Shown: piece by piece, positions 6,772-22,064 of the stretch
Numbering within the stretch: position 1 is the stretch's first letter
Layout of the letters: each line of letters starts with the position of its first letter
Origin: Candidatus Latescibacterota bacterium
GTDB lineage: Bacteria > Latescibacterota > UBA2968 > UBA8231
Assembly (NCBI GenBank): GCA_965217585.1
Contig: OZ244561.1
Location: forward strand, 1,344,001 to 1,408,000
Direction: 5' to 3'
Length of the DNA: 64,000 nt
Position numbers and translations under genes: made by a program
The notes under the pieces: generated by a model
Told to the model about the DNA's origin: nothing
The model's database searches: none
The model's input: the letters and a program-made list of their open reading frames with translations, nothing else

Positions 6772-8826
6772 CTAGCTACCGCGCACGTAGTCAATCCGCA
6801 CCACGCGAGCGTCGTCGTTGTCGCCCCAGAAGCCACTGCCCCATTCCAACACGTACAGCGAGCCGTCGGGGCCAAACTGCATGGAGATGGGATGGATGAA
6901 TTCCATACTGTCCAAAAAGGGATTGATTTTGAGGATGTGCCCGTCCTCGTCCAGCTTGACCTCTTTAATCCAATTGCTGGCCCAGTCGTACATAAAGAGC
7001 GTGCCGTCGTAGTACGCCGGCAGCTTCTTGTTGCCCGCTGCGGCATCGTAGTAGTACACCGGACCGGCCAGCGCCGTGCGGCCACCGTCAGCGGTGATTG
7101 CCGGGAACGAGGACGAGGTGTCATACGGATACCAGACCCACGCCGCCTGCGCCGGGGGCAGCGCTTGCGACCCGGTATTGTTGGGCGACAGGTTTCTCGG
7201 TGCCCCGCAATCGAAGGGCATACCGGAACGTCCGGTGGTAAAATCGTAGGCCACGTAGGGCTGGTTGTCGCCAATACAGTAGGGCCAGCCAAAATTGCCC
7301 GCCGCCCGCGCCTCGTTCCACTCGTCCAAGCCAATCGGCCCCCGCTGCGGATCGGCTTGGCGGGCGTCGGGGCCGACATCGCCCCAGTAGAGCCAGCCGC
7401 GCTTGCGGTCAACCGACAGCCGGAAGGGGTTCCGCACGCCCATGACGTAAATCTCGGGCCGGCCTTCTTCGGCTGCGGCGAACAAATTGCCCGAGGGAAT
7501 GCTGTAGCTGCCGTCGGCCTGGGGTTTGATGCGCAGGATCTTGCCGCGCAGATCGGCGCTGTTGGCCGATGTGCGCTGGGCGTCCCAATCGCGCCGGCCC
7601 GGACGCTCGTCCAACGGACTGAACCCGTCCGAAGCAAAGGGGTTGGTATTATCGCCGACGCCGATATACAGGCTACCGTCCGGGCCAAATGCCAGCGCCC
7701 CTCCCGAGTGACAGCATTCGCGCCGTTGGGTGGGAATTTCCAGCAACACAACTTCGGAATCCAAGACCAGTTCATCGCCATCTAATTCAAAACGGGATAC
7801 ATGCTGCTTGGCTACTTCGCCGTGCGGCGAGTAAAACAGGTAGAGCCAATTATTGCGGACAAAATCTGGATCTAGGGCGATGCCCAGCAGGCCGTCTTCA
7901 AAGCCGGTCGATACCGCTAGCTGCCCGACCAGCCGGGTCAATCCTAGGTCGGGCCGATACACGTTCAGCCTCCCCTTGCGCTCGATGAAGAACACGCGCC
8001 CGTCGGGAGCCACCGCCAAGTCGATGGGATTTTCAGCCTCGTCATCGAGGACGACTTTTGCAAAATTGACATCCAACGTGGCTCCGCAATCGGCCGTGGT
8101 CACTCCTGTGGCGTACTCGATGCCGCCGAGGATATGCTGCATAAACAAGGGCTCGCCGTAGCTTTCGCGGGTGTGACCGCCGCCAGTGTACCAAGAGCGG
8201 CCGCCATCGTAGTCGTGGCACCAAGCAATGGGGTGGTCAAAACCGAGATTGCCGCCGTCGTAGCTGCTTTCGTCCAAGGTCGCCAAGACATGGACTCGCC
8301 CACGGGGATTGCGGCGGTAATTGTACCACTCGTCGCGCCGCTGCCAATGGGCGGACAAATGGTCCGTGGCCGGATGAACCCGGTCGGCCACTTGGACCTG
8401 GGCCTGTTGGATGGCCGGATGGCTATCGAAATAGGCCCCCACCAAGTCGCCGTACCAGGCCCAATCGTACTCGGTATCGGCCGCGGAGTGGATGCCGACA
8501 AAACCGCTGCCGCCGCGAATGTAGCGTTCGAAAGCCCGTTCTTGCTCAGCGGCCAGTACATCGCCAGTAGTATTGAGAAAGATTACCGCCCGGTAAGGAG
8601 CCAAACCCTCGTCAGTGAAACGCCCCGCGTCCTCGGTGGCCTCGACGGCAAAACCGTTTTCCCGCCCCAAGGCTTGGATGGCGGCAATGCCGTCGGCAAT
8701 GGAGTCGTGGCGGAAACCAGCGGTTTTGGTGAAGACTAGGACAGTTACATGCTGGTCGTCAAAGGGTCCCGCAAGGGCGCTAAAGGCGACGAGCAACAGC
8801 GCAAAAGGCCAACGTGTAGCTTTCAA
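6772..8826 (-). CDS. Secreted ThuA-domain / PQQ-dependent glucose-sorbosone dehydrogenase (GSDH) fusion
   Basis: VLVFTKTAGFRHDSI and RSWYTGGGH (ThuA); CCHSGGALAFGPDG, MGVRNPFR, NFGWPY (GSDH propeller). Confidence 0.85.
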   Translation of the reverse strand: MKATRWPFALLLVAFSALAGPFDDQHVTVLVFTKTAGFRHDSIADGIAAIQALGRENGFAVEATEDAGRFTDEGLAPYRAVIFLNTTGDVLAAEQERAFERYIRGGSGFVGIHSAADTEYDWAWYGDLVGAYFDSHPAIQQAQVQVADRVHPATDHLSAHWQRRDEWYNYRRNPRGRVHVLATLDESSYDGGNLGFDHPIAWCHDYDGGRSWYTGGGHTRESYGEPLFMQHILGGIEYATGVTTADCGATLDVNFAKVVLDDEAENPIDLAVAPDGRVFFIERKGRLNVYRPDLGLTRLVGQLAVSTGFEDGLLGIALDPDFVRNNWLYLFYSPHGEVAKQHVSRFELDGDELVLDSEVVLLEIPTQRRECCHSGGALAFGPDGSLYIGVGDNTNPFASDGFSPLDERPGRRDWDAQRTSANSADLRGKILRIKPQADGSYSIPSGNLFAAAEEGRPEIYVMGVRNPFRLSVDRKRGWLYWGDVGPDARQADPQRGPIGLDEWNEARAAGNFGWPYCIGDNQPYVAYDFTTGRSGMPFDCGAPRNLSPNNTGSQALPPAQAAWVWYPYDTSSSFPAITADGGRTALAGPVYYYDAAAGNKKLPAYYDGTLFMYDWASNWIKEVKLDEDGHILKINPFLDSMEFIHPISMQFGPDGSLYVLEWGSGFWGDNDDARVVRIDYVRGS

Positions 8827-10799
8827 AACATCCGAATCCTATTCCCGGTCATCCCCGTAAACCCATCGACGACCATCCAGAACCCTCCGGCGACGAACTG
8901 CCCCAGCACCATGCCGAGGAAAAACCACCGCGTCGCCTTGTACCCATTCGGCCCAGTGTACTTCAGCACGAGTGCCTTGACCAGCCACGCAAGGAAGATG
9001 CTGAACCAAACGCTATTGAGGATCCAAGTGCCGCTGGCCAGATAGCCCAGTGGATGGAAGGGCCACCACAAAAGATGGTGCCGCGCCCAGATCAACAGCG
9101 CCATAATCGCCGCGCCGACTCCGTTCCACAGCCAGCCATCCCAATTGGGGCCAGTCGGATTGAGCGCGAAGTTTTGCGCGACGCGAAACGGCTCCTTGGC
9201 AAACCACGCCCACGAGCCGTGGTAGTTATTCGCGCCGTAGTGGTAGCTCAGCACGAGAATCGTGCAAACCCCGCCCATCAGGCCAATGGCCATGGCCAGC
9301 CCGATCATCGCGAGGATGCGGTGCTTGTAGCGGCTCAGACCGTGCAACATGCGAATGCCATTGGCGCAGGGGGCCATCATAAAGACCAGCAGATCGCCGG
9401 CCCAAGCGAGGGTCATGCCCGTGGCCAGCACCCCAGCCACCCCGAGGGACGAGGAGCCAACGCTGGAAATGAGAAAGCCGCAGCCCGACATGCCCTGGAC
9501 GGCCGCGGCCAAACCAGCTTCGACGATCATCCGCGTCAGAGCCAAAAAGATGACAAACGCCCCGAACAGATAGACGAAAACCGCCCACAGCGGCAGGCCG
9601 GAGCGCCACAGCCACAGCGACATAACCGCCAAGCCCAGCGCAACCCCGAGGACCGCCGTGCGATAGGACAGCAACTCCTCGCCATCGGACCGCCCCTCCC
9701 GCCGCCAAAGGTGCTGCACCACGTGCCATATATGGACGCGCGCCGTCCACAGCCCCAAAATCACCATGACGATCATCGCGCCCATGGTCTGATGGCTCAG
9801 CAGGCCCATGGTCGGCCCATCAAAGGTGTGGCTGAAGATGTCGAGGTTTTCAGTACTCAAGATGCCGATGCGAGTGAAGATCACCTCCTCGGCTTTGACC
9901 AATAAATAGAAGAACCACAGACTGAAGGTGATATTGGCGTTGACCAGATAGGCCAGTCCCATCCACATGCAGTCGAAGCGCAGGTAAAACCGCACGGCGT
10001 CGTGGGCCAGCGGCAGTGAGTACGCAAAGTTGATGCGGCCGATAAACTCGTAGTAGTGGCTCAAGGCATTAACCCCGTGCAAGACAAACGGCACGGCCAG
10101 CCCCAGCCACATTGAGGGATTCTTCAGGAAGGGTTTGATTCGCGCAGGTGTCGCTTCGTCCTCGACCATGCCCAGCGGCACCTGCGTCAGCGGGTAGAGC
10201 AGTCGCTCGTGGTCCATCCACTGCCGCCGCAAGATGACCATCGAGCATACGACGACCACGTAGAACGCAGCCATAAACAGCAGCCACCACAAAAGCGGCT
10301 CCACCCAAACGCCCCAAGGGATCGCCGCACCTTCCGGCAGGCCCTCGTAAAAACCTTGAATGGCCTGGGCATCGTAGGGAATGAGCCAAGTGGGGACATG
10401 CGGGAGGAGCAACTCCTCCCAGTTGTTCTCCGGGCTGGCAAAGTAGAAGATGCCGGTCAGAATCGGCACGGCAATGCTGATAAACCCTCGCGCGGCAATG
10501 GCGGTAGTAATCATCATCATCACCGCAATGCTCAACAATTCGGCGCGGCTGAAAAGCCAGTCCTGCCGCACCAGGCCGAGCAGCGGCTGCACGAAGGCCA
10601 CGAGCAAAAAGAGCAAGAAAAAGGCGGCTGGCGTCGAGGAATTCAGCCCGAGTTGGGTGCCGTTGAGGACGAATTCCCCGTACGGCAGGCCCACGGCAAT
10701 CGCGCCGCACAGCACGGCCCCCACGAGCATGGCGCGCACGCTGATTCCGGCGCGGTCCGCGGATTTTCTTGAAGCGTCCATAGAGGGCTGCTCGCTCAA
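8823..10799 (-). CDS. Polytopic membrane protein, DUF6785/DUF6784-like putative transporter
   Basis: Many TM helices; RRQWMDHERLLYPL and WWPFHPLGY motifs. Confidence 0.75.
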   Translation of the reverse strand: MSEQPSMDASRKSADRAGISVRAMLVGAVLCGAIAVGLPYGEFVLNGTQLGLNSSTPAAFFLLFLLVAFVQPLLGLVRQDWLFSRAELLSIAVMMMITTAIAARGFISIAVPILTGIFYFASPENNWEELLLPHVPTWLIPYDAQAIQGFYEGLPEGAAIPWGVWVEPLLWWLLFMAAFYVVVVCSMVILRRQWMDHERLLYPLTQVPLGMVEDEATPARIKPFLKNPSMWLGLAVPFVLHGVNALSHYYEFIGRINFAYSLPLAHDAVRFYLRFDCMWMGLAYLVNANITFSLWFFYLLVKAEEVIFTRIGILSTENLDIFSHTFDGPTMGLLSHQTMGAMIVMVILGLWTARVHIWHVVQHLWRREGRSDGEELLSYRTAVLGVALGLAVMSLWLWRSGLPLWAVFVYLFGAFVIFLALTRMIVEAGLAAAVQGMSGCGFLISSVGSSSLGVAGVLATGMTLAWAGDLLVFMMAPCANGIRMLHGLSRYKHRILAMIGLAMAIGLMGGVCTILVLSYHYGANNYHGSWAWFAKEPFRVAQNFALNPTGPNWDGWLWNGVGAAIMALLIWARHHLLWWPFHPLGYLASGTWILNSVWFSIFLAWLVKALVLKYTGPNGYKATRWFFLGMVLGQFVAGGFWMVVDGFTGMTGNRIRMF

Positions 10800-11764
10800 C
10801 TTAGCGCGACTCGCCGCCCCTCCGCCGCAGCCACCTCTGCGCCCAGCCCAATGCGGATGGCTTCAAGGGCCGTATCCAAGTCGGCGCGCCAGCCGTGCCC
10901 ACCGCGCACTTCCTCTAGAAATAGGCTCTCCAGCGAGTACTCGTCGTCGCCGGGCGGAGGCAGCGGCTCTGCGCCAGCCGCCGTCGAGCGGCACCAACCG
11001 CCGGCTTCGTACACCAGCGTCCCCCCCTCTAGAACCAAGTGCTCGTACTGCTCGGCGCGGCTAATGGCAATACCTCCAGCCCAAGTCCACTGCGCCGTGC
11101 CGCCCCCGGCAAAACCCACCACCGCGCGGCTGACAAAGCGCTCGTACGCGCCGTCGGCATTCAGGCCGTTGTAGTGGGCATAGCCCTCGACCCAAGCAGC
11201 CGGGCCGAACAAATCGACCAGCGGATAGACATGATAGACGAAAAACAAAGTCGGTGGCCCAGAAACGTGCAGGTTGAACAGCACCTCGGGGCGCACCCCT
11301 CGTCCCGGGGTCAAGCGCGTAAACAAGGCGACCAATAAGTTGCCGAGGGAATCCACCGCCTCTTTGAGCTGCCGATGCTCGGCCGATACCACTTCAGGAT
11401 GGGCTACGCGCAGCACCTTGCCGGTCGCCCGCGCCAAGTCCACCAAGGCTTCCCCTTCGTCGAGGCGGCGCGCCAAGGGGTATTCCAAGAAGACGTGTTT
11501 GCCCGCTTTTAGGGCAGCTGCGGCAATGGGGGCGTGGCTGTCGTTGTTGGTGCAGATTGCCACCGCGTCTATATCGGCTCTCTCGATCAGGGCCTGCCAA
11601 TGGCCCAGCAACTCCACCTCGTGCCGCTGGGCCAGTTCGGCCGCGGTGCGCACGTTGCGGGAGGCTAGGGCTGCTAGCTTACAGCCCTCCATGGCCGCAA
11701 AAGCGGCAGCCCGGCTTCGGGCCATGCCACCCGATCCGACTAAACCCAAGCGAATAGCTTCCAT
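10796..11764 (-). CDS. Gfo/Idh/MocA oxidoreductase
   Basis: GLVGSGGMA Rossmann motif; GKHVFLEYP. Confidence 0.9.
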   Translation of the reverse strand: MEAIRLGLVGSGGMARSRAAAFAAMEGCKLAALASRNVRTAAELAQRHEVELLGHWQALIERADIDAVAICTNNDSHAPIAAAALKAGKHVFLEYPLARRLDEGEALVDLARATGKVLRVAHPEVVSAEHRQLKEAVDSLGNLLVALFTRLTPGRGVRPEVLFNLHVSGPPTLFFVYHVYPLVDLFGPAAWVEGYAHYNGLNADGAYERFVSRAVVGFAGGGTAQWTWAGGIAISRAEQYEHLVLEGGTLVYEAGGWCRSTAAGAEPLPPPGDDEYSLESLFLEEVRGGHGWRADLDTALEAIRIGLGAEVAAAEGRRVALS

Positions 11765-12052
11765 TTGCCAAATTCCCTTGCCAAATTCTCGGATTCTAAC
11801 TGTGAGTTAAGTATGTCTCTTGGCCATCACCGTGTCCACTTTGGCCCCCAAATTGCGATTAATCGTCAAAACAGGCAGCCACACGTGCGCGTCTCTTCCC
11901 TCGACGACGCCTAATCGCCGAGTTGGAAATGTCGAGCTACAAATCGATCCTAAAGACGCGGTCGTCCAGAAGTACGTTCACGTCGTATATTAGCTCAGGG
12001 TCTATGTAGCACTAAAAGCGATACATCGGAAGTATCAAACGAAAGGAAAAAC

Positions 12053-12268
12053 GTGAAGATCAACTACTTTGAAGATACGGACACCGCTTTTATCGAATTC
12101 ACTTCAGAACGTGTCGCTGAGACTCGGGAATTGTGCGAGAACATCCATATAGACCTCGACAAGCATGGGAACCTCGTCTCCATGAAGGTTGAGCACGCCA
12201 AGAAGAGTGCCAACATCCTAGAATTGACCTTCGAGCGTCAAGAAAAAAGTCCTGATCAATCGGTCTAA
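12053..12268 (+). CDS. DUF2283 family protein (putative antitoxin, orphan)
   Basis: KINYFEDTDTAFIEF...IDLDKHGNLVSM pattern; AAAGGA SD; no intact toxin adjacent. Confidence 0.8.
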   Translation: MKINYFEDTDTAFIEFTSERVAETRELCENIHIDLDKHGNLVSMKVEHAKKSANILELTFERQEKSPDQSV

Positions 12269-12286
12269 AGCCAGCATTCACAAACC

Positions 12287-12423
12287 CTACAACGCCCCCC
12301 GATGCTCCCTGCGAATGGCCTCGCACAAGCGCATGGTATGCACGGCATCATCCAAGTTCGACCACGGAGTGCGGTCCTCCAGAATACAATCGACAAAGTG
12401 GACTACCTCGTTGAAACCGGCCC
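12287..12423 (-). repeat. Displaced copy of the 3' end of the oxidoreductase gene (direct repeat of 17306-17442)
   Basis: 130/137 identical by manual alignment, including the TAG stop. Confidence 0.95.
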
Positions 12424-12477
12424 GTATCCACTTTAGCCCCAATCTTGTCGACGCCACGCAATCGAAAAATCAGCATG

Positions 12478-12521
12478 CGTCGGGTTGAGCCCGCAAGAAT
12501 CAAAATCGCCCTTCCTGTATA
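12478..12521 (-). repeat. 44-bp inverted repeat, left copy (pairs with 16561-16604)
   Basis: Reverse complement TATACAGGAAGGGCGATTTTGATTCTTGCGGGCTCAACCCGACG versus TATAAAGGAAGGGTGATTTTGATTCTTGCGGGCGCAATCCGGCG; 39/44. Confidence 0.9.
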
Positions 12522-12687
12522 AAGCCGCTATATAGATCGCGCATTCTTTGAATGCCTCGCCTTCTTGGGTAGTCCGAGGGAACCCGACCCAACAGAGTTC
12601 GCGCCACTAGGTTGCCCCAGCATCCAGAAGCACGGTGATGACAAGAGCTATGGTCGTGCTGCACTGAAATGTCCAATTTTTATCATT

Positions 12688-12788
12688 CATAAATTAGACT
12701 AAAATCTATTATATCCTAATTTATGCTATATTTTGTATGGATACATGAAAATTAGTTCTTGACAAACCGTTGAATATAAGCGTATTTT
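12688..12788 (+). promoter_or_regulatory. Operator-like inverted repeat and probable promoter of the XRE gene
   Basis: CATAAATTAG-N18-CTAATTTATG (12688-12725); TTGACA(12759)-18 nt-TATTTT. Confidence 0.5.
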
Positions 12789-12834
12789 GAAGCCCTAATG
12801 ACTGGCACCCATGCAAACTTCAAGGAGCTTAGCC

Positions 12835-14118
12835 ATGCAAATTGATCCTGTTCGCCTCCGCACCCTACGCAAAGAGAGAAGCGGGTCCCGCCTCCAGCTT
12901 GCAAAACAATCTGGAATCAACGCGAGGACGATCCAACGCTTAGAAAAAGAACCGCAGCCATCCCGAAAGAGCACCCTGACTAGCTTAGCCAAGGCACTCG
13001 GCGTCGAACCGGGTGTGCTCACCGGCGAGTTGCCGCTTCCCGAGTTCGATAAGGTACCCGCCTCCGCCTCCAAGCAGGTCCAAATCAGTGCACAGATCAC
13101 GTCGAAGGCCCGGCTCGAATACGACCTCATCAAACACCTATATGGCGTCAGTGCCACAGAGCTCATCAATATGGCACCACTCTTCTTCGCACTTTTGGCC
13201 GAGGGAAGTCTTGCTTGGCGACGCGAGAGATTGAAAGAGCCGAAAGACGCGATTGATCGTTTGAGGCAAGCTAGCTGGAATGTGAGTTGCATTTCTGGCG
13301 CGTATGTCGCGAACGGAGGGGTCGCGGCAGAAGAAAATTCTATCTCCAAGACTGATCTATTCGGTGAACATCTGCTCAGTGATATCGATGACAAATTTTT
13401 ATTAGATGAATATGACGTCATTTACCTTTCCATATACAATCCGTTCGCCAGCTATTTGTGGAAATTGGAAAAGGAACTGGCCATCCCTGGCGTCATTGAT
13501 GTGGACAGTTACTCGATCAATGGGTATCCTGGCCTCGAACCGCCGTTAAAATTCCCCACCTACAACATCTGCCGCGACGAATTCGACGGCATAGCCAACG
13601 GTTCTAACTACGCCAAGATGGCTCTTAAAACCGGCCATGTGCGGATCTCCGAGATTCCCGAAGAACTAATGGCGGAAGATGCCGGTGAGGAGCGCGCGAA
13701 GTGGCTCGAAAAAAGAATGCCGGGTGTCATCAAGGATACGAACGAGGAGATAGAGGGCATACTTAGAGAATTTAACGTCAAGGATGACGATTATGCTCTT
13801 ATAATGAGGGAAGTAACTCAGTCTGGTAGCCTCGACGAATTAAAGCAGCTAGCATCCGGTCTTAGAAGCATCGAAGTGTCCGACGGTCTCTCAAAGGAGC
13901 GCAGAGAGGAGCTGGCAGAGAAGCTGATTACCCTAGGGACGTATCGAGAGGTGCTGGTCCGCAACGGCATTTTGGACCCGGAAGGCGACTTAAGGAAGCG
14001 CATAGAAGAGCATGACATAACCGACGAGGAATTGGATAGGCTGCTCGCAGATGAACCAGAAGAGGCGGACTCTCAAGAGACCAATTCCGACATTGAAGAA
14101 GGAGACGACGACCAATGA
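12835..14118 (+). CDS. XRE-family HTH protein with large unknown C-terminal region
   Basis: RLRTLRKER...QLAKQSGINARTIQRLE...LAKALGV HTH; AAGGAG SD before ATG 12835. Confidence 0.85.
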   Translation: MQIDPVRLRTLRKERSGSRLQLAKQSGINARTIQRLEKEPQPSRKSTLTSLAKALGVEPGVLTGELPLPEFDKVPASASKQVQISAQITSKARLEYDLIKHLYGVSATELINMAPLFFALLAEGSLAWRRERLKEPKDAIDRLRQASWNVSCISGAYVANGGVAAEENSISKTDLFGEHLLSDIDDKFLLDEYDVIYLSIYNPFASYLWKLEKELAIPGVIDVDSYSINGYPGLEPPLKFPTYNICRDEFDGIANGSNYAKMALKTGHVRISEIPEELMAEDAGEERAKWLEKRMPGVIKDTNEEIEGILREFNVKDDDYALIMREVTQSGSLDELKQLASGLRSIEVSDGLSKERREELAEKLITLGTYREVLVRNGILDPEGDLRKRIEEHDITDEELDRLLADEPEEADSQETNSDIEEGDDDQ

Positions 14119-14417
14119 ACAACGTCAGCTATACCCACCACGCTGAGACGCGTATGCAGCAGCGAGGCATTCGCGAAAAGGACATTCCACTCATTATCGC
14201 GCTGGGAACGCAGATTGACAACGAGACTTGGTTTATGCGCAATCGGGATGTTACCCGTGAGATCGAGAACCTCAAGAAGGAGATACACCGATTGGAACGC
14301 CTTGCGAACCGCAAGGTTGTGGTACGCAGCGGGCAGGTCATCACGGCCTATCTCTCACGACCAGCGGATCAGAAACGTACACTACGCCGCGGACGGCAGA
14401 AGGGGGTGGCAAAATGA
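14115..14417 (+). CDS. DUF4258 family putative RNase toxin
   Basis: YTHHAETRMQQRGI ... VITAY; ATGA overlap with the XRE gene. Confidence 0.75.
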   Translation: MNNVSYTHHAETRMQQRGIREKDIPLIIALGTQIDNETWFMRNRDVTREIENLKKEIHRLERLANRKVVVRSGQVITAYLSRPADQKRTLRRGRQKGVAK

Positions 14418-14470
14418 GCACGCCAATACTTATTTCCTTATCTCAATCGAAGCATAAAGGAGGAATATAG

Positions 14471-15097
14471 ATGGTTGAAAAATTAACTACCGGCACAGTG
14501 AAGCGGATGCTTGAGTGGTCCTACGATCAGGCTCTCTCAAGTCATGGACCCATCGATGGGGCGGTAGATCTAGCCGAGAGCTATAAAGGCCAGTATGGGG
14601 CCTTGAGAGAAGACGCGAATGCCCTAATTCGATGGCAAAACGTCAAAGCAGGAACTTCGGGTTTTATCGCGGGGGTTCCGGGCCTCACGGCGATGCCAAT
14701 TTCGCTCCCTGCGAATTTGACTAGCGTACTGTTCATCCAAATTCGCATGATTGCAGCCATAGCTCACTTAGGGGGCTATGACCTTAGAGATGACCGCGTA
14801 AAGGCGCTCTGTTTCGTTTGTCTTTGTGGTAATGGAGCGAGGACTATACTGAAAAACGTGGGAATAGAGATGGGCAGAAAGATGGCTACCGCGGCTCTCA
14901 AGCGGTTGCCTGGAAGGATTTTTATTGAAATCAACAAGAAAGTCGGCACCAGACTTCTGACCAAATTTGGAGAGAAGGGCATTATCAACGTAGGCAGGGC
15001 GATCCCGTTCATGGGAGGCTTCATTGGCGGCACGGTGGATTTGGCATGGACTAATGTCGTTGGCAACCAAGCCAGAGACACCTTCACTCCTGATTGA
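14471..15097 (+). CDS. EcsC family protein
   Basis: AGTSGFIAG, QIRMIAAIAHLGGYD, GRAIPFMGGFIGG motifs; AGGAGG SD. Confidence 0.8.
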   Translation: MVEKLTTGTVKRMLEWSYDQALSSHGPIDGAVDLAESYKGQYGALREDANALIRWQNVKAGTSGFIAGVPGLTAMPISLPANLTSVLFIQIRMIAAIAHLGGYDLRDDRVKALCFVCLCGNGARTILKNVGIEMGRKMATAALKRLPGRIFIEINKKVGTRLLTKFGEKGIINVGRAIPFMGGFIGGTVDLAWTNVVGNQARDTFTPD

Positions 15098-15445
15098 TGA
15101 ATACTCTACCAAGGATTGATCTTATGAATTAGATCGAGCTTGCTCACTTTGGCTCCTTTCTGGCCACCGGCTTGACATGTAGGGCGCTCTAAGCTACAGG
15201 CCGCATACATGGCCATAAAACAGTGGTTGTGTTGGCTACGCTCGCATTTTTTGGACTTCCGGGTCGGCATAGTCCCTAAAGGGTCTCATCCATGTGTTGC
15301 GCCCGATACAGTCGAACCCCGCACATCCCCGTCCTCCCCGCTGTGCTGCCGCCTTGGCATGGATATTGCAATTACGAATGGCCCCAACCGTCCCCTCCGG
15401 TTCGGACGGCTTGGCACGCTCTAATTCCTAATTCTCAATTCCTAA

Positions 15446-15649
15446 CTGACGTTACGCAGACTTATGTAGTGTCTGCCGCCTTGTTGCCCTGCCTGTCGTC
15501 ATTCCCGCGAAAGCGGGAATCCAGCCCAGCGCCCTAGCCTCAAACGGCCTTTCTGGATGCCTGCTTTCGCAGGCATGACACCGGGACCGCACAGGCACCA
15601 AGCGGGCGGAAGAGGCTGCCCTAAGAAGACAGAGGCTGCGTAACATCAG
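15446..15649. mobile_element. MITE, 204 bp, 14-bp TIRs, flanked by TTCCTAA direct repeats
   Basis: CTGACGTTACGCAG (15446-15459) and CTGCGTAACATCAG (15636-15649), 13/14; TTCCTAA at 15439-15445 and 15650-15656. Confidence 0.75.
15498..15579. repeat. REP/dRS3-like palindrome doublet in inverted orientation
   Basis: GTCATTCCCGCGAAAGCGGGAATCCAG ... CTGGATGCCTGCTTTCGCAGGCATGAC; the first matches ATTCCC-N8-GGGAAT. Confidence 0.85.
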
Positions 15650-15672
15650 TTCCTAATTCCCGATGGATCGCC

Positions 15673-16536
15673 ATGGCCGAATTTGACACTATCTCCAAAC
15701 ACCTCATTCACACCTACCCCCACGACTTCGCCCGCTTTGCCCTTCAGCACGACGACCTTGAGGTACTCGACGTCATCGACACCGAGCAACCCACCGTCGA
15801 AGCCCACCGCACCGATAGCCTCATCCGCGTGCGCGTCGGCGACGAGGAGGCGTTGGTCCATCACGAATTTCAAACCACCGACAGCACCCCGCCGATGCCG
15901 CGCCGGATGGTCGGCTACATCGGGCGCGGCATTGAGCAGCACGGCCTGCCGATCTACTCCAGCGTCATCTATCTACGTCCAGCGGCCGGCCGAACCGATC
16001 CGGGGCACCATATCCAAGAGCGGCACGGCTTCCGCGTGCTGGTGCAATACCAAGTGATTCGGCTGATAGAAATAGACGGCCAACGCATCCTCGACGCGGG
16101 GCACTCGGGCTTGCTGCCGTTTGCGCCGTTGATGCAGCGGCCGACGGGGGTGGATGCGGCGGCGTGGTTGCGCCAGTGTGTGAACCGGGCGCAGCAGGTG
16201 CCGATAGACGAGACTCTCAAGGCGAATTATCTGGCCGATCTTGCCATTTTGAGCGGGTTGGTGTATAAATTAGAAACGATTATGGCCATCATCGCGGAGG
16301 AGACCATGTACGAATCGTCGGTAGTGCAGTATTTCACGGAAAAGGGCATTGAGCAGGGAGGCCGAGAATTTCTCCTCGACGTGTTGGCCCTTCGCTTTCA
16401 GCCGGAGGATGTGCAACGGTTGACCAGCCGCATTGAGGCCATCGGGGATGTGCAGCGCCTCAAGCAGTTACATCGGGCGGCCATACAGGTCCCCAGCCTC
16501 GAAGCCTTTAGGCACCTGTTAGACGCCGACGAGTAG
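15673..16536 (+). CDS. Rpn/YhgA-like PD-(D/E)XK nuclease (putative transposase family)
   Basis: FDTISKHL, RTDSLI, HHEFQT, MPRRM..Y, EKGIEQG motifs. Confidence 0.85.
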   Translation: MAEFDTISKHLIHTYPHDFARFALQHDDLEVLDVIDTEQPTVEAHRTDSLIRVRVGDEEALVHHEFQTTDSTPPMPRRMVGYIGRGIEQHGLPIYSSVIYLRPAAGRTDPGHHIQERHGFRVLVQYQVIRLIEIDGQRILDAGHSGLLPFAPLMQRPTGVDAAAWLRQCVNRAQQVPIDETLKANYLADLAILSGLVYKLETIMAIIAEETMYESSVVQYFTEKGIEQGGREFLLDVLALRFQPEDVQRLTSRIEAIGDVQRLKQLHRAAIQVPSLEAFRHLLDADE

Positions 16537-16560
16537 GCCCGCCGCGCAACATCACTCATA

Positions 16561-16604
16561 TATAAAGGAAGGGTGATTTTGATTCTTGCGGGCGCAATCC
16601 GGCG
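16561..16604 (+). repeat. 44-bp inverted repeat, right copy
   Basis: Pairs with 12478-12521; begins 24 nt after the rpn stop codon. Confidence 0.9.
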
Positions 16605-16750
16605 ACCAAGCCTAGAGCTAGAAGAATAATCCTTGTAAGTGGGTCGCCCCCGCCATAAGCTATGTGTAGATACCCGCCGGCAGCGTGCTGTCGGCTCAAG
16701 GGCCGCTCTTCGGAGTGGCCCTTGCCCTATCTGCCCTTGCGGAGATTCCC

Positions 16751-17299
16751 ATGACGACCACCGATTTGATAACCGCCAACGAGTTATTGCAGATGAAGGA
16801 CGATGGCTTCCGCTATGAACTGGTCCGAGGAGAATTGATAAAAAGGAGTCCAGCCGGCCACCAACACGGTAGAATCGCGCTCAATTTCACCACGCCCTTG
16901 GACCAGTTCGTCCGGGCCAACCAACTAGGTGCCGTCTATGCGGCCGAAACCGGCTTCAAACTGGCCGAGGATCCCGATGTGGTGCGGGCCCCAGACGCGG
17001 CCTTCATCCGGCGCGAGCGGGTCGAGGTGGAGGGCCAAACCGAGGGCTTTTGGCCCGGTGCTCCCGACCTAGCGGCCGAGGTTGTCTCACCGGGCGATAC
17101 CTACGCCGAGGTCCAGGACAAGATCGCCGATTGGCTCGACGCTGGCACCCGCTTGGTCGTGGTCGTCAATCCAAGCACCCAAACGGTCGCTCTGCACCAC
17201 TCGCGGAGCGACATCCGCATCCTGACCACCGACGACGTACTCGACGGCGGCGAAGTGGTGCCGAACTGGACCCTGCCGGTGCGAGATATATTCATCTAA
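16751..17299 (+). CDS. Uma2 family endonuclease
   Basis: RYELVRGEL, VRAPDAAF, APDLAAEVVSP, WLDAGTRLV; GGAG SD. Confidence 0.9.
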   Translation: MTTTDLITANELLQMKDDGFRYELVRGELIKRSPAGHQHGRIALNFTTPLDQFVRANQLGAVYAAETGFKLAEDPDVVRAPDAAFIRRERVEVEGQTEGFWPGAPDLAAEVVSPGDTYAEVQDKIADWLDAGTRLVVVVNPSTQTVALHHSRSDIRILTTDDVLDGGEVVPNWTLPVRDIFI

Positions 17300-17305
17300 A
17301 TACCT

Positions 17306-18268
17306 CTACAAAGCCCCCCGATGCCCCCTGCGAATGGCCTCGCACAAGCGCATGGTATGCACGGCATCGTCCAAGTTCGACCACGGCGTGCGGTCCTCCA
17401 GAATGCAATCGACAAAGTGGACGACCTCGTTGAAGCCGGCCCCGCCCATTGCTTCGATCTCCTCGGCTTCTACGGTAAAGGGCTCCCTCTTGTCATAGCC
17501 CTCCACCTGCGGCCCCCGAGTCATATTCAGATAGATCGACAAATCCTCGCCGTGTACCTCGGCCCGCTGAATGCGGTAACCCACACCGTAGTGGCTCATC
17601 ATGGTGCCGAAAGTGCCCGTATCGAAACGCACCACGGCGTTGTGCCGGTGGCACCCAGGCCGCTCGCCGTCTTGCACCATCCCTTGCACCTCCACCGGAA
17701 TAGCCGCTTGCTCGGCGCTGGGGCCAGCCAGCCAGCGCAGCAGATCGACGTGGTGAATGGCGTCGCATATCACCGGATCGGGCGCCACCGGCCCCAACAG
17801 AGTCACCGGCTTATTGTACGTGGCGGCGCAATGCACCGCGCCCCCAGCCGCCTCGATGCGCTGCCGCACGGCTAGCACTTGAGGAAAGTAACGCCGATTA
17901 AAAGACACCAGCGCCTTGCCTTGGCTCTGCTGGGCCGCTTGGGCCATTTGTGCGGTCTCGGCCGCGGTCATGCCCGGCGCTTTCTCCACGGAGGTGTGCA
18001 GCCCGCGCTCCAAGCAATCGACCACGATGGGAAGCAAGTGGCCGGGCATGGTGACCACATGCACGACCTCCGGCTGGCAGACATCGAGCATCTCCCGGTA
18101 GTCGGCAAAGGCGTGTTCCGGCCCCCATTCGCCTTGGTTTTTGCGCCGCCGCTCTTCGTCGAGCTCGGCAATGCCCACCAAGCGCAGGCGCAGCTCGGCG
18201 GCAATCATGCGGAAGTGCGACTGAGCGTGGCCGCCGCAGCCGATGACCGCTACTTTTAAATCTGCCAT
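17306..18268 (-). CDS. Gfo/Idh/MocA oxidoreductase (island target gene)
   Basis: VAVIGCGGHA, VEKAP, FNRRY, DAIHHVD. Confidence 0.9.
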   Translation of the reverse strand: MADLKVAVIGCGGHAQSHFRMIAAELRLRLVGIAELDEERRRKNQGEWGPEHAFADYREMLDVCQPEVVHVVTMPGHLLPIVVDCLERGLHTSVEKAPGMTAAETAQMAQAAQQSQGKALVSFNRRYFPQVLAVRQRIEAAGGAVHCAATYNKPVTLLGPVAPDPVICDAIHHVDLLRWLAGPSAEQAAIPVEVQGMVQDGERPGCHRHNAVVRFDTGTFGTMMSHYGVGYRIQRAEVHGEDLSIYLNMTRGPQVEGYDKREPFTVEAEEIEAMGGAGFNEVVHFVDCILEDRTPWSNLDDAVHTMRLCEAIRRGHRGAL

Positions 18269-18363
18269 AGGGCTTCCTTTCCAAGGGGTTGATTACTAAA
18301 GCCTAAAAATAATTGCCAATATACAGTGCTGCTTACTCCTATGCTCGTTCTTCGTTGACAAAT

Positions 18364-18392
18364 TTGACAGGGGATTGTAGGGCCAGTATAGT
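18364..18392 (+). promoter_or_regulatory. Sigma70-type promoter
   Basis: TTGACA-17 nt-TATAGT upstream of the 18431 ORF. Confidence 0.7.
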
Positions 18393-18430
18393 GTTTCAAC
18401 TCGGTTCACAATATTCCAAAGGATCTTCTC

Positions 18431-19048
18431 ATGCGCGTCATTGCCGTTGGCTGCGAATACTCAGGCGTTAGCACCCTCATCGCGCAGGTGCATCAATGGG
18501 GGCTGAGTCGCGGAATTAGCCACCATCTCGACGATCATTTTACCATCCCCGACGCCTATCACCTCAGCGACGAGGAGCAGCTAGCCATGCTGGCCATGCT
18601 GCCGGCCATCAAGGAGCGCTTCCAGCGCTTCCAGATCGTCTATCACGTGCGCTTGCTGCACCGCTATCGAGACATCTTGTTGGGTGGTTTCCACATAGAG
18701 GAAAAGGTGTACGGCCCCAAATACTACTACCCGGACATCGACATCGACATCCGCGAATACGAGCCAGACATGCCCGATGACACCATACTCGTCCACCTGG
18801 ACGCCGCGCCCGCAACAATCCGCGCCCGCATGGCCGCAGCCCCACATCCGCACTCATTGGTCCCCACCGAAGACGTTCCAGAAATACTAGATCGTTTCCA
18901 GCAAGAGGTGCGGGCCTCTTGGATCCGCCGCAAATTCGCCATTGATACCACCGACCTAACGCCTATCCAACTCCTCGAAACCTTCCTCAACCGCTCCATC
19001 CCCCACCTCAATCCCGGCGACGCCGCCACGCGGCTTTTGACCCGCTAG
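18431..19048 (+). CDS. NMP-kinase-like P-loop fold protein
   Basis: N-terminal GCEYSGVST, ILVHLDA...IRARM lid-like motif, IDTT C-terminus. Confidence 0.65.
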   Translation: MRVIAVGCEYSGVSTLIAQVHQWGLSRGISHHLDDHFTIPDAYHLSDEEQLAMLAMLPAIKERFQRFQIVYHVRLLHRYRDILLGGFHIEEKVYGPKYYYPDIDIDIREYEPDMPDDTILVHLDAAPATIRARMAAAPHPHSLVPTEDVPEILDRFQQEVRASWIRRKFAIDTTDLTPIQLLETFLNRSIPHLNPGDAATRLLTR

Positions 19049-19066
19049 CCTGACATAGCTTCTACC

Positions 19067-19267
19067 ATGACTAATCGCAACACGCAAAGGACGGAAATGG
19101 TAGATTCGAGAAGGGACTTTTTTAGCAAGGCGAACAACCTCACGCTCGGTACGGCGACTACCGTACCGCCGGGTTATCCCGGAGCGGTGCACATTTGTCC
19201 GAACATATACACGACACCCTATGAACTGGATCTATTCGTCGCCGCGATGAAAGAACTGGCCGCCTAG
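19067..19267 (+). pseudogene. Relic of a Tat-exported class V aminotransferase-like gene (N- and C-termini only)
   Basis: SRRDFF twin-arginine motif joined directly to GAVHICPNIYTTPYELDLFVAAMKELA. Confidence 0.55.
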
Positions 19268-19280
19268 TCCCCTTTCTGCG

Positions 19281-20705
19281 CTACATTAGCTCCGCCGTCC
19301 AATACGCCTGCGGGTCTCTCGCGCTATTGCCCACGCGCCGCACCAAGCCCCGGGATGTCAATGCGTACAGATTCCTCAACACCACCGGACGCGAATAGCC
19401 AGTCAACGCCACCAACTCGCCGGTCCTCAACCGGCCAACCAGCGCGATCTGCTCAAATAAATGGCGCGCGGCCTCGGGCATCCCTCGCAGTTCATCCGGC
19501 TGGACCATCGCACCGGACAGCGCTATTTCGACGCCGCCCGCCATCTGCCTGACCACCGGACGCTGCCGCCCACTCGCTTCCATCACGGCCACCATGCGGC
19601 GCAACCCTTCCCCCAATTCCTGACCATACGACAAGTCGGTCATCACCCGCGCAATGCGGGGGTTGCGAGCAAACCGCCGCACCTCCAGCAAGTCGCCTAG
19701 GGCAGTTATTCCGGGGAATCGGCCCGGACTCGACACCTCGACCTTATCGTCGAACACCGCTAACCGGATGTGGTCGCCGAAGTTGCTGTACGCGCGATGG
19801 ATGACCGCGTTCACTAGTGCTTCCAGCCAAACTTCTTCCGGCACGATGCCAAACCAGCCAAAACGTCCATCCGGCCCCAAAGACCTGCGCTTGGGCATTG
19901 CCTCGCGCATGGCCTGACGCGCCGCGTCGATCTGCTGCGGCAACCGCCCCGCGCAGCGGATGTCGCTGATCAGATTCTGCTCGCTGCCCGTGCGCCGCTC
20001 GCGCCCGGCGTATTTCAGCACCCTGACAAAGGCCTGGGGGAACGCCCTTTGCGGATCGGCCGCAAACAGCAATGCACCCGCCGTGCGCATTTCACCATCT
20101 GGCCCGACCAAATCTCGCGCCTGCAACAGCCGCTGCGGATCCGGATGCCCCACCTGTTCGGCGTAGGCGGCTACGCTGTCTGCGTCGAGTGGAGAAGGCC
20201 CGTACGTACTTGCGGGCGTAATTTCAAAACTGGTATCCCCTCGGTCGTATTGAAATTCAATGCGCTGCTCAAAGGACAACCGGCGGTTTTCATCGCCGGT
20301 GCGCAGGAAAACCTCGTCGCGGGTCGTGCTATGCACCTGACTGCTCGGAGGTATGGCTATCAACAGCGCGTGGTCCGCCGCGCACCGGGCATTGATGCAC
20401 TGCAACAGGATCGGCTCAAAGCGCACCGGCGGCAGCGTCAAATTAACCCCGGCCTGCCGCCACTCATTCTGCGCCTGCGGGCGGTCGTCAATCCCCTCAC
20501 AAGTGCCGGCGCGAAAGCCGACGACAATAACTCCACCCTCGGCATTCGCCATTGCCACCAGCGTTTCGGCCAAGCTACGGGCTGAAATACGCGCACTTTT
20601 GCGGTCAAACCATTGCCCTTCCGGCTCGGCCAACAGAAGCTCAGTTACTGCATCCGGCGGCATGGCTAACAGATTCTCAATCGGCGGCAACATACTTGGT
20701 CGCAT
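19281..20705 (-). CDS. Schlafen/AlbA_2 + HATPase_c_4 + wHTH protein (RecG-C-like ATP-binding protein)
   Basis: EGQWFDRKS, AMANAEGG; EALVNAVIHRAY, SPG, RNPRIA, ELGEG; C-terminal wHTH. Confidence 0.85.
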   Translation of the reverse strand: MRPSMLPPIENLLAMPPDAVTELLLAEPEGQWFDRKSARISARSLAETLVAMANAEGGVIVVGFRAGTCEGIDDRPQAQNEWRQAGVNLTLPPVRFEPILLQCINARCAADHALLIAIPPSSQVHSTTRDEVFLRTGDENRRLSFEQRIEFQYDRGDTSFEITPASTYGPSPLDADSVAAYAEQVGHPDPQRLLQARDLVGPDGEMRTAGALLFAADPQRAFPQAFVRVLKYAGRERRTGSEQNLISDIRCAGRLPQQIDAARQAMREAMPKRRSLGPDGRFGWFGIVPEEVWLEALVNAVIHRAYSNFGDHIRLAVFDDKVEVSSPGRFPGITALGDLLEVRRFARNPRIARVMTDLSYGQELGEGLRRMVAVMEASGRQRPVVRQMAGGVEIALSGAMVQPDELRGMPEAARHLFEQIALVGRLRTGELVALTGYSRPVVLRNLYALTSRGLVRRVGNSARDPQAYWTAELM

Positions 20706-20834
20706 GGATAAGGCGGTTGACGAAGGCGAAACATTTCAGGGCGGGGCCTCTATAGGCCGTAAATTTGTGCTGACGACGCCCCCTAGATGCGCGGGCGTCC
20801 CTACGTAATCTCCATTTTGAACATTACTATATCA

Positions 20835-20855
20835 TACTATAAATAATTTATAGTA
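20835..20855. promoter_or_regulatory. AT-rich perfect palindrome, putative operator
   Basis: TACTATAAAT-A-ATTTATAGTA upstream of the AlbA_2 gene. Confidence 0.55.
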
Positions 20856-20864
20856 AAAAGTCCC

Positions 20865-22064
20865 CTATTCCCCCCTCGCCCCCGCCTCCAACCCCCGGGC
20901 GATATCCAAATTTTCGCGGAAGCCTTGGTCATCCGGGGCCAAGCGCACCGCGCTGGCAAAAGCCGCGGCTGCGGCCGCAAAGTCCCGGCGCATCAGGTGC
21001 AGGTTGCCGAGGCTATTGTACGCGTTGGCGTGGGTCGAATCCGCGGCGAGCGCTTGGGCAAAAAGCCGCTGGGCCGCAGCGAATCGCTCCTCGCGCAAAT
21101 AGATGTTGCCCAAGTTCACATAGGCCGCCGCAAAGCTCGAGTCGAGCGCGAGAGCACGGCGGTAGCGCGCCGCGGCCTTGGCAAATTGGCGACGCTGGCC
21201 ATAGAGCACTCCCAAGTCGTAGTGGCGGCGCGCGTCCTCGGCCTCGCTCAAGAGCGTAAACTCCAAACTCTTGACCATCTTTTCCTCTTCTTCGAGGCGC
21301 GCAAATCGCTCCAATACCTCGCGGCCCTTTTGCCGCTTGCCTAAGCGCATATAAACCTGCCCCAAGTCGTAGTGGGGGCGCGCCCAAAACGGGCGCAGCG
21401 CGACGGCCCGCAGCAAAAGATCCTCGGCCTCCTCATAGCGCTGCTCCTCCACATAGAGGGCACCCAAGCCCGCGTACGCACCCGCTTGGGTCGTGTCCGT
21501 GCGAATCGCCTGGGCAAACGCCGTTTTCGCCGCTTCGCGCTCGCCGCGCTTGACGTGGACTTGGCCGAGATGGTACCAAAGTTCATAGTGCGTCGAATCC
21601 ACTTGCAAGGCGCGCTCGTACAGGGCGGCGGCCTCTTGGTATGCGCCCTGCCGGATGTGCAGCAGGCCCAAGGCATTGTAGGCGGAAATGTACCCGGGGT
21701 CGCTTTCCAATGCCTTGCGGAGCGGCGCGTAGGCCGCCTCGTACTTTTTTTGCCGGATGTACACAGCGCCGAGCTGGTAATACGCGTCCGCATAGTCGGG
21801 CTTGAGTGCTATGGCTTTTTGGTACGCGGCCTCAGCTTGGTCGAGGGCATCGGTCAGAAAATAGGCATTGGCCAGATTGTAATGGACTTGGGGCGCGTCG
21901 GGCATCTGCGCGGCCGCTTGCTTGTACGCGGCAATGGCTGCGTGGAAACGCCCGCGTTGAGCGTGCTCAAGCCCCTGCTGGAAATACGCGCGCCCGGTAG
22001 CCGAGGGCGGCTCCGGCTCTTGGCAGCCGATGAGCAGCAGCGCTAGGCACGAGGCCCTAATCAT
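20865..22064 (-). CDS. TPR-repeat lipoprotein
   Basis: LLLIGC lipobox; tandem TPRs. Confidence 0.9.
   Translation of the reverse strand: MIRASCLALLLIGCQEPEPPSATGRAYFQQGLEHAQRGRFHAAIAAYKQAAAQMPDAPQVHYNLANAYFLTDALDQAEAAYQKAIALKPDYADAYYQLGAVYIRQKKYEAAYAPLRKALESDPGYISAYNALGLLHIRQGAYQEAAALYERALQVDSTHYELWYHLGQVHVKRGEREAAKTAFAQAIRTDTTQAGAYAGLGALYVEEQRYEEAEDLLLRAVALRPFWARPHYDLGQVYMRLGKRQKGREVLERFARLEEEEKMVKSLEFTLLSEAEDARRHYDLGVLYGQRRQFAKAAARYRRALALDSSFAAAYVNLGNIYLREERFAAAQRLFAQALAADSTHANAYNSLGNLHLMRRDFAAAAAAFASAVRLAPDDQGFRENLDIARGLEAGARGE

Follow-up and report, generated by a model that had tools for sequence, protein, structure and literature searches.

The window analysed here is a 64,000-nucleotide (nt) stretch of the genome of a Candidatus Latescibacterota bacterium (contig OZ244561.1, positions 1,344,001 to 1,408,000), and the feature under study is a gene whose end occurs in it twice. 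The gene, designated oxA (17306..18268, minus strand), is intact and codes for a Gfo/Idh/MocA-family oxidoreductase of 320 amino acids (aa), which matches Pfam GFO_IDH_MocA (E-value 2.2e-12) and its C-terminal domain. A repeat search returned one two-copy family, whose 137-nt members at 12287-12423 and 17306-17442 have the same orientation, are 95% identical and lie 5019 nt apart, start to start. The member at 17306..17442 (minus strand), hereafter the attached tail (copy I), comprises the last 44 codons and the stop codon of oxA; that at 12287..12423 (minus strand), hereafter the fragment (copy F), lies 18 nt from the stop codon of a DUF2283 gene. In a pairwise alignment, similarity between the copies breaks off at the oxA stop codon and, at the opposite end, at 12423/17442; their longest identical run is 43 nt. 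Seven sites differ (none, one and six at the first, second and third codon positions, respectively); six of the differences are synonymous (GGC/GGT, GTC/GTA, TGC/TGT, ACG/ACT, GAC/GAT and GCT/GCG) and one, GGG/GAG, exchanges Gly for Glu. These results confirm the claim of an earlier note on this DNA that a 137-bp tail recurs 5019 bp away with six synonymous substitutions and one G to E substitution. The sole further match to the tail in the genome, a single contig of 7.32 Mb, is 73% identical over 90 nt and belongs to a paralogue with 59% protein identity; therefore the fragment is not better explained by another paralogue.

Next to the fragment, 54 nt at the novel joint (12424..12477) precede a module of genes, all on the plus strand. 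These encode an XRE-type helix-turn-helix (HTH) protein of 435 aa (12811..14118; HTH_3, E-value 4.2e-07), which overlaps the start of the next gene, a DUF4258-like small protein of 100 aa (14115..14417; PF14076, 7.5e-05, below the Pfam cut-off) and an EcsC-family protein of 208 aa (14471..15097; PADLOC PDC-S29, 8.8e-79; Pfam EcsC, 1.5e-06, below the cut-off), a candidate defence gene. The DUF4258-like protein is probably the toxin partner of the XRE gene. The GC content of this module is 46-53%, against 57-65% around it. Further towards oxA lie, again on the plus strand, a gene for an Rpn-like protein of 287 aa, p287 (15673..16536), and a gene for a Uma2-family putative endonuclease of 204 aa (16685..17299; PF05685, 3.7e-33; PADLOC PDC-S03, 1.3e-17), which is convergent with oxA and ends 6 nt from its stop codon. 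The hidden Markov model (HMM) matches for PDC-S29 (EcsC) and PDC-S03 (Uma2) were both found, and both PADLOC entries are candidate defence systems. On the other side of the fragment, an open reading frame (ORF) of 57 aa and the DUF2283 gene (11820..12268, plus strand; DUF2283, 1.4e-15) form the conserved far border of a variable region. We could not detect any integrase or resolvase family among the ORFs of 11820-18268 (Pfam, NCBIfam), or any tRNA or Rfam family in scans of 8000-22000, and the nearest PF00589 match in the genome is more than 100 kb from the islet, as we call the region between the copies. The islet thus has no integrase of its own. The gene list of the earlier note and the absence of a recombinase from it were borne out by Pfam, NCBIfam and PADLOC, except for the Rpn label, which is discussed below.

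Orthologues of oxA were found in 24 genomes of the genus at 89-95% protein identity and in two further genomes at 76%. We compared the 16.5 kb downstream of the gene in 24 relatives (22 of the genus orthologues, two on short contigs being left out, and the two at 76%), and none of the 24 had a second oxA tail within this distance. Islet genes were present there, all without the duplication: a full-length Uma2 gene directly follows the oxA stop codon in 10 of the 24, with the same junction sequence as here, an Rpn-like gene occurs in 12 and XRE-DUF4258 in 6. The XRE protein is 50-59% identical to the versions of the relatives, and the DUF4258 homologues in the 6 relatives are 69-74% identical. 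The DUF2283 gene closes the region in 18 of the 24, 5-12 kb from oxA. In 3 of the 22 genus relatives no islet genes follow oxA. A block of TPR, FG-GAP-ASPIC, PPIase and 910-aa protein genes, found in 15 of the 22, is absent from this genome, which has only paralogues of it that are 48-68% identical; given this low identity, the block is missing here and has not merely changed place. Among the 41 of 71 ORF families scanned from the regions of the 22 relatives, none was a recombinase family. What follows oxA is therefore a variable stretch of the genus, old and mosaic in make-up; the tail duplication in it is private to this genome. Since relatives hold the islet genes without duplication, the duplication points to a single event in this lineage and not to a discrete element, and relatives with oxA followed by cargo and no duplication represent the donor-like state. 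The idea of the earlier note of cassettes that travel with a piece of the host gene is not supported at this locus, where the 5 kb is no discrete cassette that takes its tail along, since the Uma2, Rpn-like, XRE and DUF4258 genes sit there beside a single tail.

Two features of the islet point to rearrangement. The XRE-DUF4258-EcsC module is inverted with respect to every relative that carries it, and also with respect to the strain of run X23, in which a contig joins 12562 and 15170 on opposite strands. In addition, a 44-nt motif that is native to the spacer between the p287 and Uma2 genes (16561..16604; kept there in relatives' loci L047, with 95% identity over 59 nt, L039 and L051) has an inverted copy at 12478..12521, 89% complementary and 55 nt from the fragment. 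These are the only two copies of the motif in the genome, and they form an inverted pair that flanks 4 kb of the islet. The motif recurs at unrelated loci of three relatives (L190, L191 and L193) without any islet gene. The 54 nt at the joint had no match in the loci of the 24 relatives or in metagenome contigs, and a search with 12424-12560 in 30 genus genomes returned only the 44-nt motif. Metagenome matches of 20-mers to the joint were set aside as chance, because they came from two records that share nothing else with the region.

To see which copy is native, we polarised the seven differences with the 22 relatives as outgroup, which placed six on the fragment and one on the attached tail. 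Private or rare alleles occur at 2.5-3.0 per 100 nt in the gene body, against 1 in the 137 nt of the attached tail and 6 in the 137 nt of the fragment. All six changes of the fragment are GC to AT and five are synonymous; the probability of at least five synonymous changes out of six is 0.02-0.04 under a neutral GC to AT model. They resemble the coding substitutions private to this lineage in the oxA body (13 GC to AT, 3 AT to GC and 6 other; 14 synonymous and 8 non-synonymous). This resemblance suggests that the fragment is most likely the displaced native oxA end of this lineage. The attached tail, which has few private alleles and continues straight into the Uma2 gene as in relatives, most likely is an allele nearer the bulk of the genus that was imported with the cargo. 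Upstream of the repeat border, which is at gene position 827, private alleles reappear after 26 nt, at position 801. At four other loci, donor alleles in the anchor gave mixed pictures of the tract borders.

The same geometry recurs throughout the genome. We compared the genome with itself and kept repeats on the same strand with a length of 50-500 nt, an identity of at least 85% and a spacing of 0.3-60 kb; the resulting 193 pairs were classified by criteria symmetric for fragments upstream and downstream of the intact gene. Of these, 33 rows were of the type 'gene tail plus short fragment', and the fragment lay downstream of the intact gene in 30 and upstream in 3 (binomial P = 1.4e-06). The repeats of the tail class end at the stop codon or within ~17 nt of it, are 53-333 nt long and are 0-15% diverged. 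No shared motif or restriction-like site was noticed by eye at the 30 joints, for which no motif search was run. The genes hit have ordinary functions in metabolism or housekeeping (oxidoreductase, rpoN, peptidase M20, PhyH and others). We annotated the cargo of 20 loci (88 ORFs) and of a stacked locus. It includes Hachiman HamA together with a helicase, HepT together with an MNT-type nucleotidyltransferase, a toxin of the PemK/MazF type, DUF433 paired with DUF5615, pairs of PIN-domain proteins, a GNAT, a D12 methyltransferase next to DUF7687, an N6_N4 methyltransferase, an AAA_22/AAA_16 protein of 1675 aa and HATPase_c_4 proteins. Ordinary genes occur too, namely those for a PD40 propeller, enzymes of the Gfo/Idh/MocA and MR_MLE families and an ankyrin protein. 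All-against-all BLASTP of the ORFs around 29 pairs showed that the only recurrent cargo, apart from paralogue clusters, is the Rpn-like family, at three loci. The scan for further copies of gene tails, which the earlier note had proposed, thus finds its geometry about 30 times, often around toxin-antitoxin, restriction-modification or defence cargo.

At the stacked locus (L194; G000:C1:2918000-2924000, where G000 is this genome), the tail of a PNPOx-like gene (2921931-2922440, minus strand) is found twice more downstream. The displaced tails, at 2920450-2920520 and 2919449-2919502, each retain ~20 nt of the original flank, and between the tail copies lie HTH_3-led cargo and then a PIN_3 plus RHH/HicB-like pair. 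At least five duplications of gene 5' ends also flank cargo (five cases were inspected). In one of them (L195; G000:C1:5645400-5648800), the 111-nt start region of a Schlafen/AlbA_2-HATPase_c_4-Fic_C gene is duplicated around a MazE-like plus PIN pair, and this 5'-end scar adjoins a gene for a type I restriction S subunit. As to enzymes that could act on such DNA, the genome encodes five tyrosine recombinases, one of them ~600 nt outside the fragment copy of a 13-kb pair, two full-length RecA proteins (G000:C1:1631222-1631998 and 4297739-4298509) and ComEC; no serine recombinase and no Ku were found in it.

If the copies of a tail had started out identical and the fragment had then drifted neutrally, the ratio of non-synonymous to synonymous differences per site (pN/pS) would be expected at ~0.5 or more. 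Over the 30 pairs pooled (1149 codons), differences at the three codon positions numbered 66, 40 and 144, of which 142 were synonymous and 108 non-synonymous, giving a pN/pS of 0.25; the non-synonymous share is far below the neutral expectation (P = 5e-08; P = 5e-04 if synonymous sites are counted more generously). The pooled differences comprise 120 GC to AT against 95 AT to GC, which is no strong signal of decay. On the fragment branch, the four other loci that could be polarised show 10 synonymous and 4 non-synonymous changes; with oxA the five loci have 15 and 5 (P = 6e-4). These results, including the dN/dS-type signal that the earlier note had suggested computing, support its proposal that both tails evolved as functional alleles. 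Fragments do decay later, since the displaced rpoN tail carries two frameshifts (a 1-nt deletion and a 2-nt insertion).

Precise empty sites exist in relatives at the four loci tested in this respect, in addition to the three relatives without islet genes at oxA; such sites were among the checks that the earlier note had named. At rpoN (L063; G000:C1:7500-11700), the cargo comprises one HATPase_c_4 ORF, precisely from its start to its stop codon, with the ATG 7-11 nt after the rpoN stop codon and the TGA 4 nt before the 224-nt displaced rpoN tail. This cargo occurs in 4 of 29 relatives (in one partially, in another as only a ~45-nt fragment), and in 9 of the 29 the flank runs on from a single tail. 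At the GHL10 locus, HepT-MNT with the same repeat is present in 2 of 21 relatives and a single tail in the other 19; the same 97-nt repeat surrounds HepT-MNT in this genome and in G002, whereas the sister genome G001 is empty. The GHL10 fragment has two markers in common with the single tail of the sister genome. Hachiman at the PhyH locus occurs in 1 of 26 relatives (the sister genome only), and the flank is continuous with one tail in 15 of the 26. The MazF cargo of the peptidase M20 locus occurs in none of 28 relatives.

We consider it probable that these structures arose by homology-anchored import of DNA from relatives with displacement of the resident tail, either in a manner like homology-facilitated illegitimate recombination (HFIR) or by a single crossover of a circle. 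At oxA, DNA of a related strain or species would enter the cell, bringing the last ~140 nt of oxA followed by the Uma2 gene, the Rpn-like gene and the low-GC XRE-DUF4258-EcsC module. Chromosomal joining would take place through the homology in the oxA tail, without a site-specific recombinase, by one of two routes: a one-sided homologous anchor combined with an illegitimate joint (HFIR-like), or one crossover with a fragment that had become circular (Campbell-like). After this, oxA would end in the incoming tail, and the resident tail would be pushed 5 kb downstream as a dead fragment. The duplicated piece would always include the stop codon because only products that preserve the whole gene would survive selection. 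The same process would have left the ~30 tail scars and the few 5'-end scars, many of them at toxin-antitoxin, restriction-modification or defence genes. In Campbell-type integration, one crossover of a circle duplicates the homologous segment directly around the insert, and the reaction is reversible; it yields exactly the product seen here. A linear HFIR-like event with a long anchor does not predict an imported tract that ends at the repeat border, whereas a circle does, although only with a crossover in the first 7 of the 137 nt. The coincidence of tract limit and border would favour the circle, but no circular form was seen here, and Ku is missing, so that classical end-joining is not at hand for circularising a fragment. 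Contigs of four runs over 11000-19000 contain no joint that skips the 5019 nt, which is uninformative either way since contigs drop rare forms. The history of the islet includes at least one step beyond the main event, as the inversion and the 44-nt inverted copy show.

Several observations weigh against import by this path. No sampled relative has the duplication or the 54-nt joint, so that the donor is unseen, and at the four other loci no relative stood out as donor either, the fragments being slightly more distant than the attached tails. The assignment of the native copy at oxA depends on few sites. The putative imported tract has its left limit within gene positions 801-834 and hence at the border of the duplication (827), which is awkward for a linear event, and the absence of Ku is awkward for a circular one. 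The inverted XRE module and the inverted 44-nt motif beside the fragment need more than one event or a more complex one. In relative G008, both GHL10 copies carry private markers of that genome, which fits local duplication or gene conversion there. Among the 30 pairs, 7 have no cargo annotation. Finally, the class of duplicated gene heads is noisy (22 against 12, P = 0.12) and is contaminated by paralogue clusters and repeat proteins.

A further protein of the islet deserves attention before alternatives are weighed. In searches of Pfam (even at E 10) and NCBIfam, p287 had no hit, the Rpn family HMMs PF04754, PF12784 and TIGR01784 being unmatched, and a PDB sequence search with E up to 1 likewise found nothing. 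In the ESM Atlas, the closest clusters bear the name 'Rpn family recombination-promoting nuclease' (score 0.97), and one source names one homologue 'predicted transposase YdaD'; the source names of p287 homologues read Gemmatimonadota. Of 31 homologues, one matches PDDEXK_2 (0.003) and one Transposase_31 (0.008); D48, E65 and Q67 are invariant across all 31. The AlphaFold2 model (mean predicted local distance difference test, pLDDT, 90.6) comprises a PD-(D/E)XK-like N-terminal domain and a helical C-terminal part, and the N-terminal domain aligns with NucS, Can2, McrC and restriction enzymes (Z 5.4-7.8; Foldseek probability 0.91-0.98 over 90-120 residues, with no E-value at or below 0.001). 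Several leads from sequence and model therefore agree with the name Rpn that the earlier note had given to the 287-aa protein, but no HMM matches it and the name is unproven. The genome has about nine p287 paralogues, of which one is in the islet, one lies within 106-nt direct repeats and one adjoins another pair. The paralogue within repeats (G000:C1:1562740-1563981) is 59% identical to p287, and its 106-nt direct repeats are 94% identical to each other.

Just upstream of the p287 gene lies an insertion of 208 nt resembling a miniature inverted-repeat transposable element (15443..15650), with terminal inverted repeats of 26 nt. Copies of it are present elsewhere in the genome, at 1716795-1717002 (99.5%) and 1109061-1109267 (98.6%), with partial ones at 5837067 and 7177100, and contigs of two runs lack the insertion (joint 15441>15646). 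The summed word depth of bin 15272-15538 exceeds 10,000 in all four runs. On the upstream side of oxA, three relatives (G019, G005 and G008; loci L050, L053 and L057) have a Uma2 homologue, whose place in this genome is taken by a gene for a 205-aa protein without assigned function (18431-19048). Two genes upstream of oxA is a gene for a 474-aa Schlafen/AlbA_2 plus HATPase_c_4 plus HTH protein (19281-20705, minus strand), whose best PADLOC match is a pAgo-associated model (2.4e-23) and which has twelve genomic tblastn matches.

Among the other explanations is a dedicated mode of integrase-free mobility, which we regard as quite unlikely. According to it, tail-flanked cassettes pop out as circles and return to the same gene in other cells through a single crossover, perhaps aided by Rpn-like nucleases. 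It would account for the recurrence of the geometry, the stacked array, the patchy cargo with precise empty sites, the HepT-MNT cassette with the same repeat in two genomes and an empty sister, and an imported tract whose left limit is the repeat border; the nine Rpn-like paralogues, with their positions in the islet, between repeats and beside a further pair, are also suggestive. At oxA, however, the cargo has no repeats around it in relatives, only 3 of the ~30 pairs have an Rpn-like gene with them, and nothing separates such a mode from ordinary recombination that is repeated many times. In such a mode, the mobility of tail cassettes may be promoted by the Rpn-like PD-(D/E)XK nucleases, a family that is expanded in this lineage.

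It is improbable that the islet is a decayed site-specific element, similar to a cis-mobilizable element (CIME), or one moved by an integrase encoded elsewhere, with the tails as attL and attR of an island that brings a replacement tail. The geometry is classical for such elements, in that direct repeats including the stop codon, one of them completing oxA, enclose foreign low-GC cargo. An att-like direct repeat of this kind does not discriminate, because homologous routes give the same product. One of the 30 pairs, that of 13 kb, has a tyrosine recombinase nearby. Against this stand the lack of recombinases from the ORFs of the islet and from the scanned ORF families of the relatives, and the relatives with the same genes in the same place but no att-like repeats. 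About 30 targets would also need many specificities, for which the genome offers five tyrosine and no serine recombinases; an integrase acting in trans, which the earlier note had allowed, is thus unlikely. The variable length of the repeats, the lack of a joint motif visible to the eye and, at oxA, a longest identical run of 43 nt also count against it. An integron gene cassette fits poorly, as no tyrosine recombinase is near and the repeats are host gene tails that differ from site to site.

We hold it to be similarly improbable that the fragment is a local duplicate, made in the rearrangement that inverted the XRE-DUF4258-EcsC module or by template switching during replication, which then decayed with nothing imported. 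Some observations would suit this: the inversion itself, the inverted 44-nt copy next to the fragment, the GC to AT direction of all six changes on the fragment branch, as for unselected DNA, the common private markers of the GHL10 copies in G008 and the frameshifts of the rpoN fragment. An inversion alone, however, makes no direct repeat of a tail 5 kb off. The excess of synonymous changes in the fragment of oxA, on the fragment branches of the five loci and in the pooled pN/pS also argues for sequences that diverged under coding constraint, and the coding changes of this lineage are biased from GC to AT anyway, 13 to 3. That the assembly joined the gene ends of two strains in one contig is very improbable: it is of metagenome type with 6.9% estimated contamination, and short-read contigs break inside the repeat at 12320-12338, but the genome is one contig, contigs of three public runs of one study (12320-13047, 12320-14080 and 12338-13047; maybe from the source sample and so not independent) cross the fragment-to-cargo joint with 104 nt of the fragment and no mismatch, another contig spans 17399-17618 across the inner border of the attached copy, and several of the ~30 analogous structures are common to independent assemblies of relatives.

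Homology-anchored import with tail displacement has precedents. HFIR has been described in Acinetobacter, Streptococcus pneumoniae and Pseudomonas stutzeri, all of them transformable, and in E. coli conjugation (PMC3240628; PMC5361080), and an HFIR-like route is proposed for effector-immunity arrays of type VI secretion systems (T6SS) and for Rhs loci (PMC5361080). As in the HFIR outlined there, foreign DNA would be acquired here via one homologous anchor and a non-homologous joint, with no recombinase gene in the cargo, and ComEC and RecA are present. A possible difference is that the joint lies upstream of the end of the anchor, so that the tail is duplicated; another is that the tract imported here apparently begins at the repeat border. 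A second precedent are the 3'-end displacement arrays of Rhs, contact-dependent inhibition (CDI) and T6SS effector-immunity loci (PMC5361080), where the arrival of a module supplies a new gene end and the displaced old one persists downstream as an orphan. Repeated events stack orphans there, as they appear to have done at 2919449-2922440 of this genome. In those arrays, however, the genes are polymorphic toxin genes whose variable ends are the cargo, whereas here the genes are ordinary, their ends are merely exchanged for nearly identical alleles and a separate cassette makes up the cargo. Genomic islands, integrative and mobilizable elements (IMEs) and CIMEs (PMC5704250) integrate site-specifically into the 3' end of a gene, which they restore, and their tandem accretion is known. 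They share with our loci the direct repeats that include a gene end around foreign cargo. In contrast to them, no integrase was found here or in the versions of the relatives, the repeats are long, variable and up to 15% diverged, and many unrelated genes are targeted in a genome with few recombinases.

At the single locus oxA, the structure is an ordinary recombination scar. The earlier note had seen in it a possibly undescribed, recurrent and integrase-free route of cassette accretion. 'Undescribed' was too strong a word, given that HFIR and 3'-end displacement arrays are already in print (PMC5361080). Recurrence without an integrase is supported genome-wide by the ~30 loci, the stacked array and the four loci with empty sites, but not at oxA itself, where the relatives are unduplicated. 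Scars of this type are known already; what is new is how often they occur within a single genome and how they are associated there with cargo of toxin-antitoxin and defence genes. A full-text literature search found no paper on genome-wide gene-tail duplications around toxin-antitoxin or defence cassettes, which is not proof of absence.

Toxin-antitoxin and anti-phage genes often have no transposase or integrase nearby, and the route by which they arrive is an open question. In this genome, about thirty scars would record one such route, in which a cassette arrives with a replacement gene end and the old end stays behind. Tail scars can be detected by a simple repeat scan, they record the incoming allele, and they are matched by empty sites in relatives. 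The route can thus be counted across genomes and tested in transformable laboratory strains. It is also conceivable, though unlikely, that gene ends serve as portable attachment sites, such that tail-flanked cassettes are released, by recombination between the two tail copies, as circles of one tail plus cargo and enter the same gene in relatives by a single crossover, where the flanks are regenerated and the cassettes, lacking a recombinase of their own, spread and stack. If this is true, portable gene-end sites would be a self-perpetuating mode of mobility, which would explain how small defence genes come to lie at 'hotspots' without visible genes of mobile elements.

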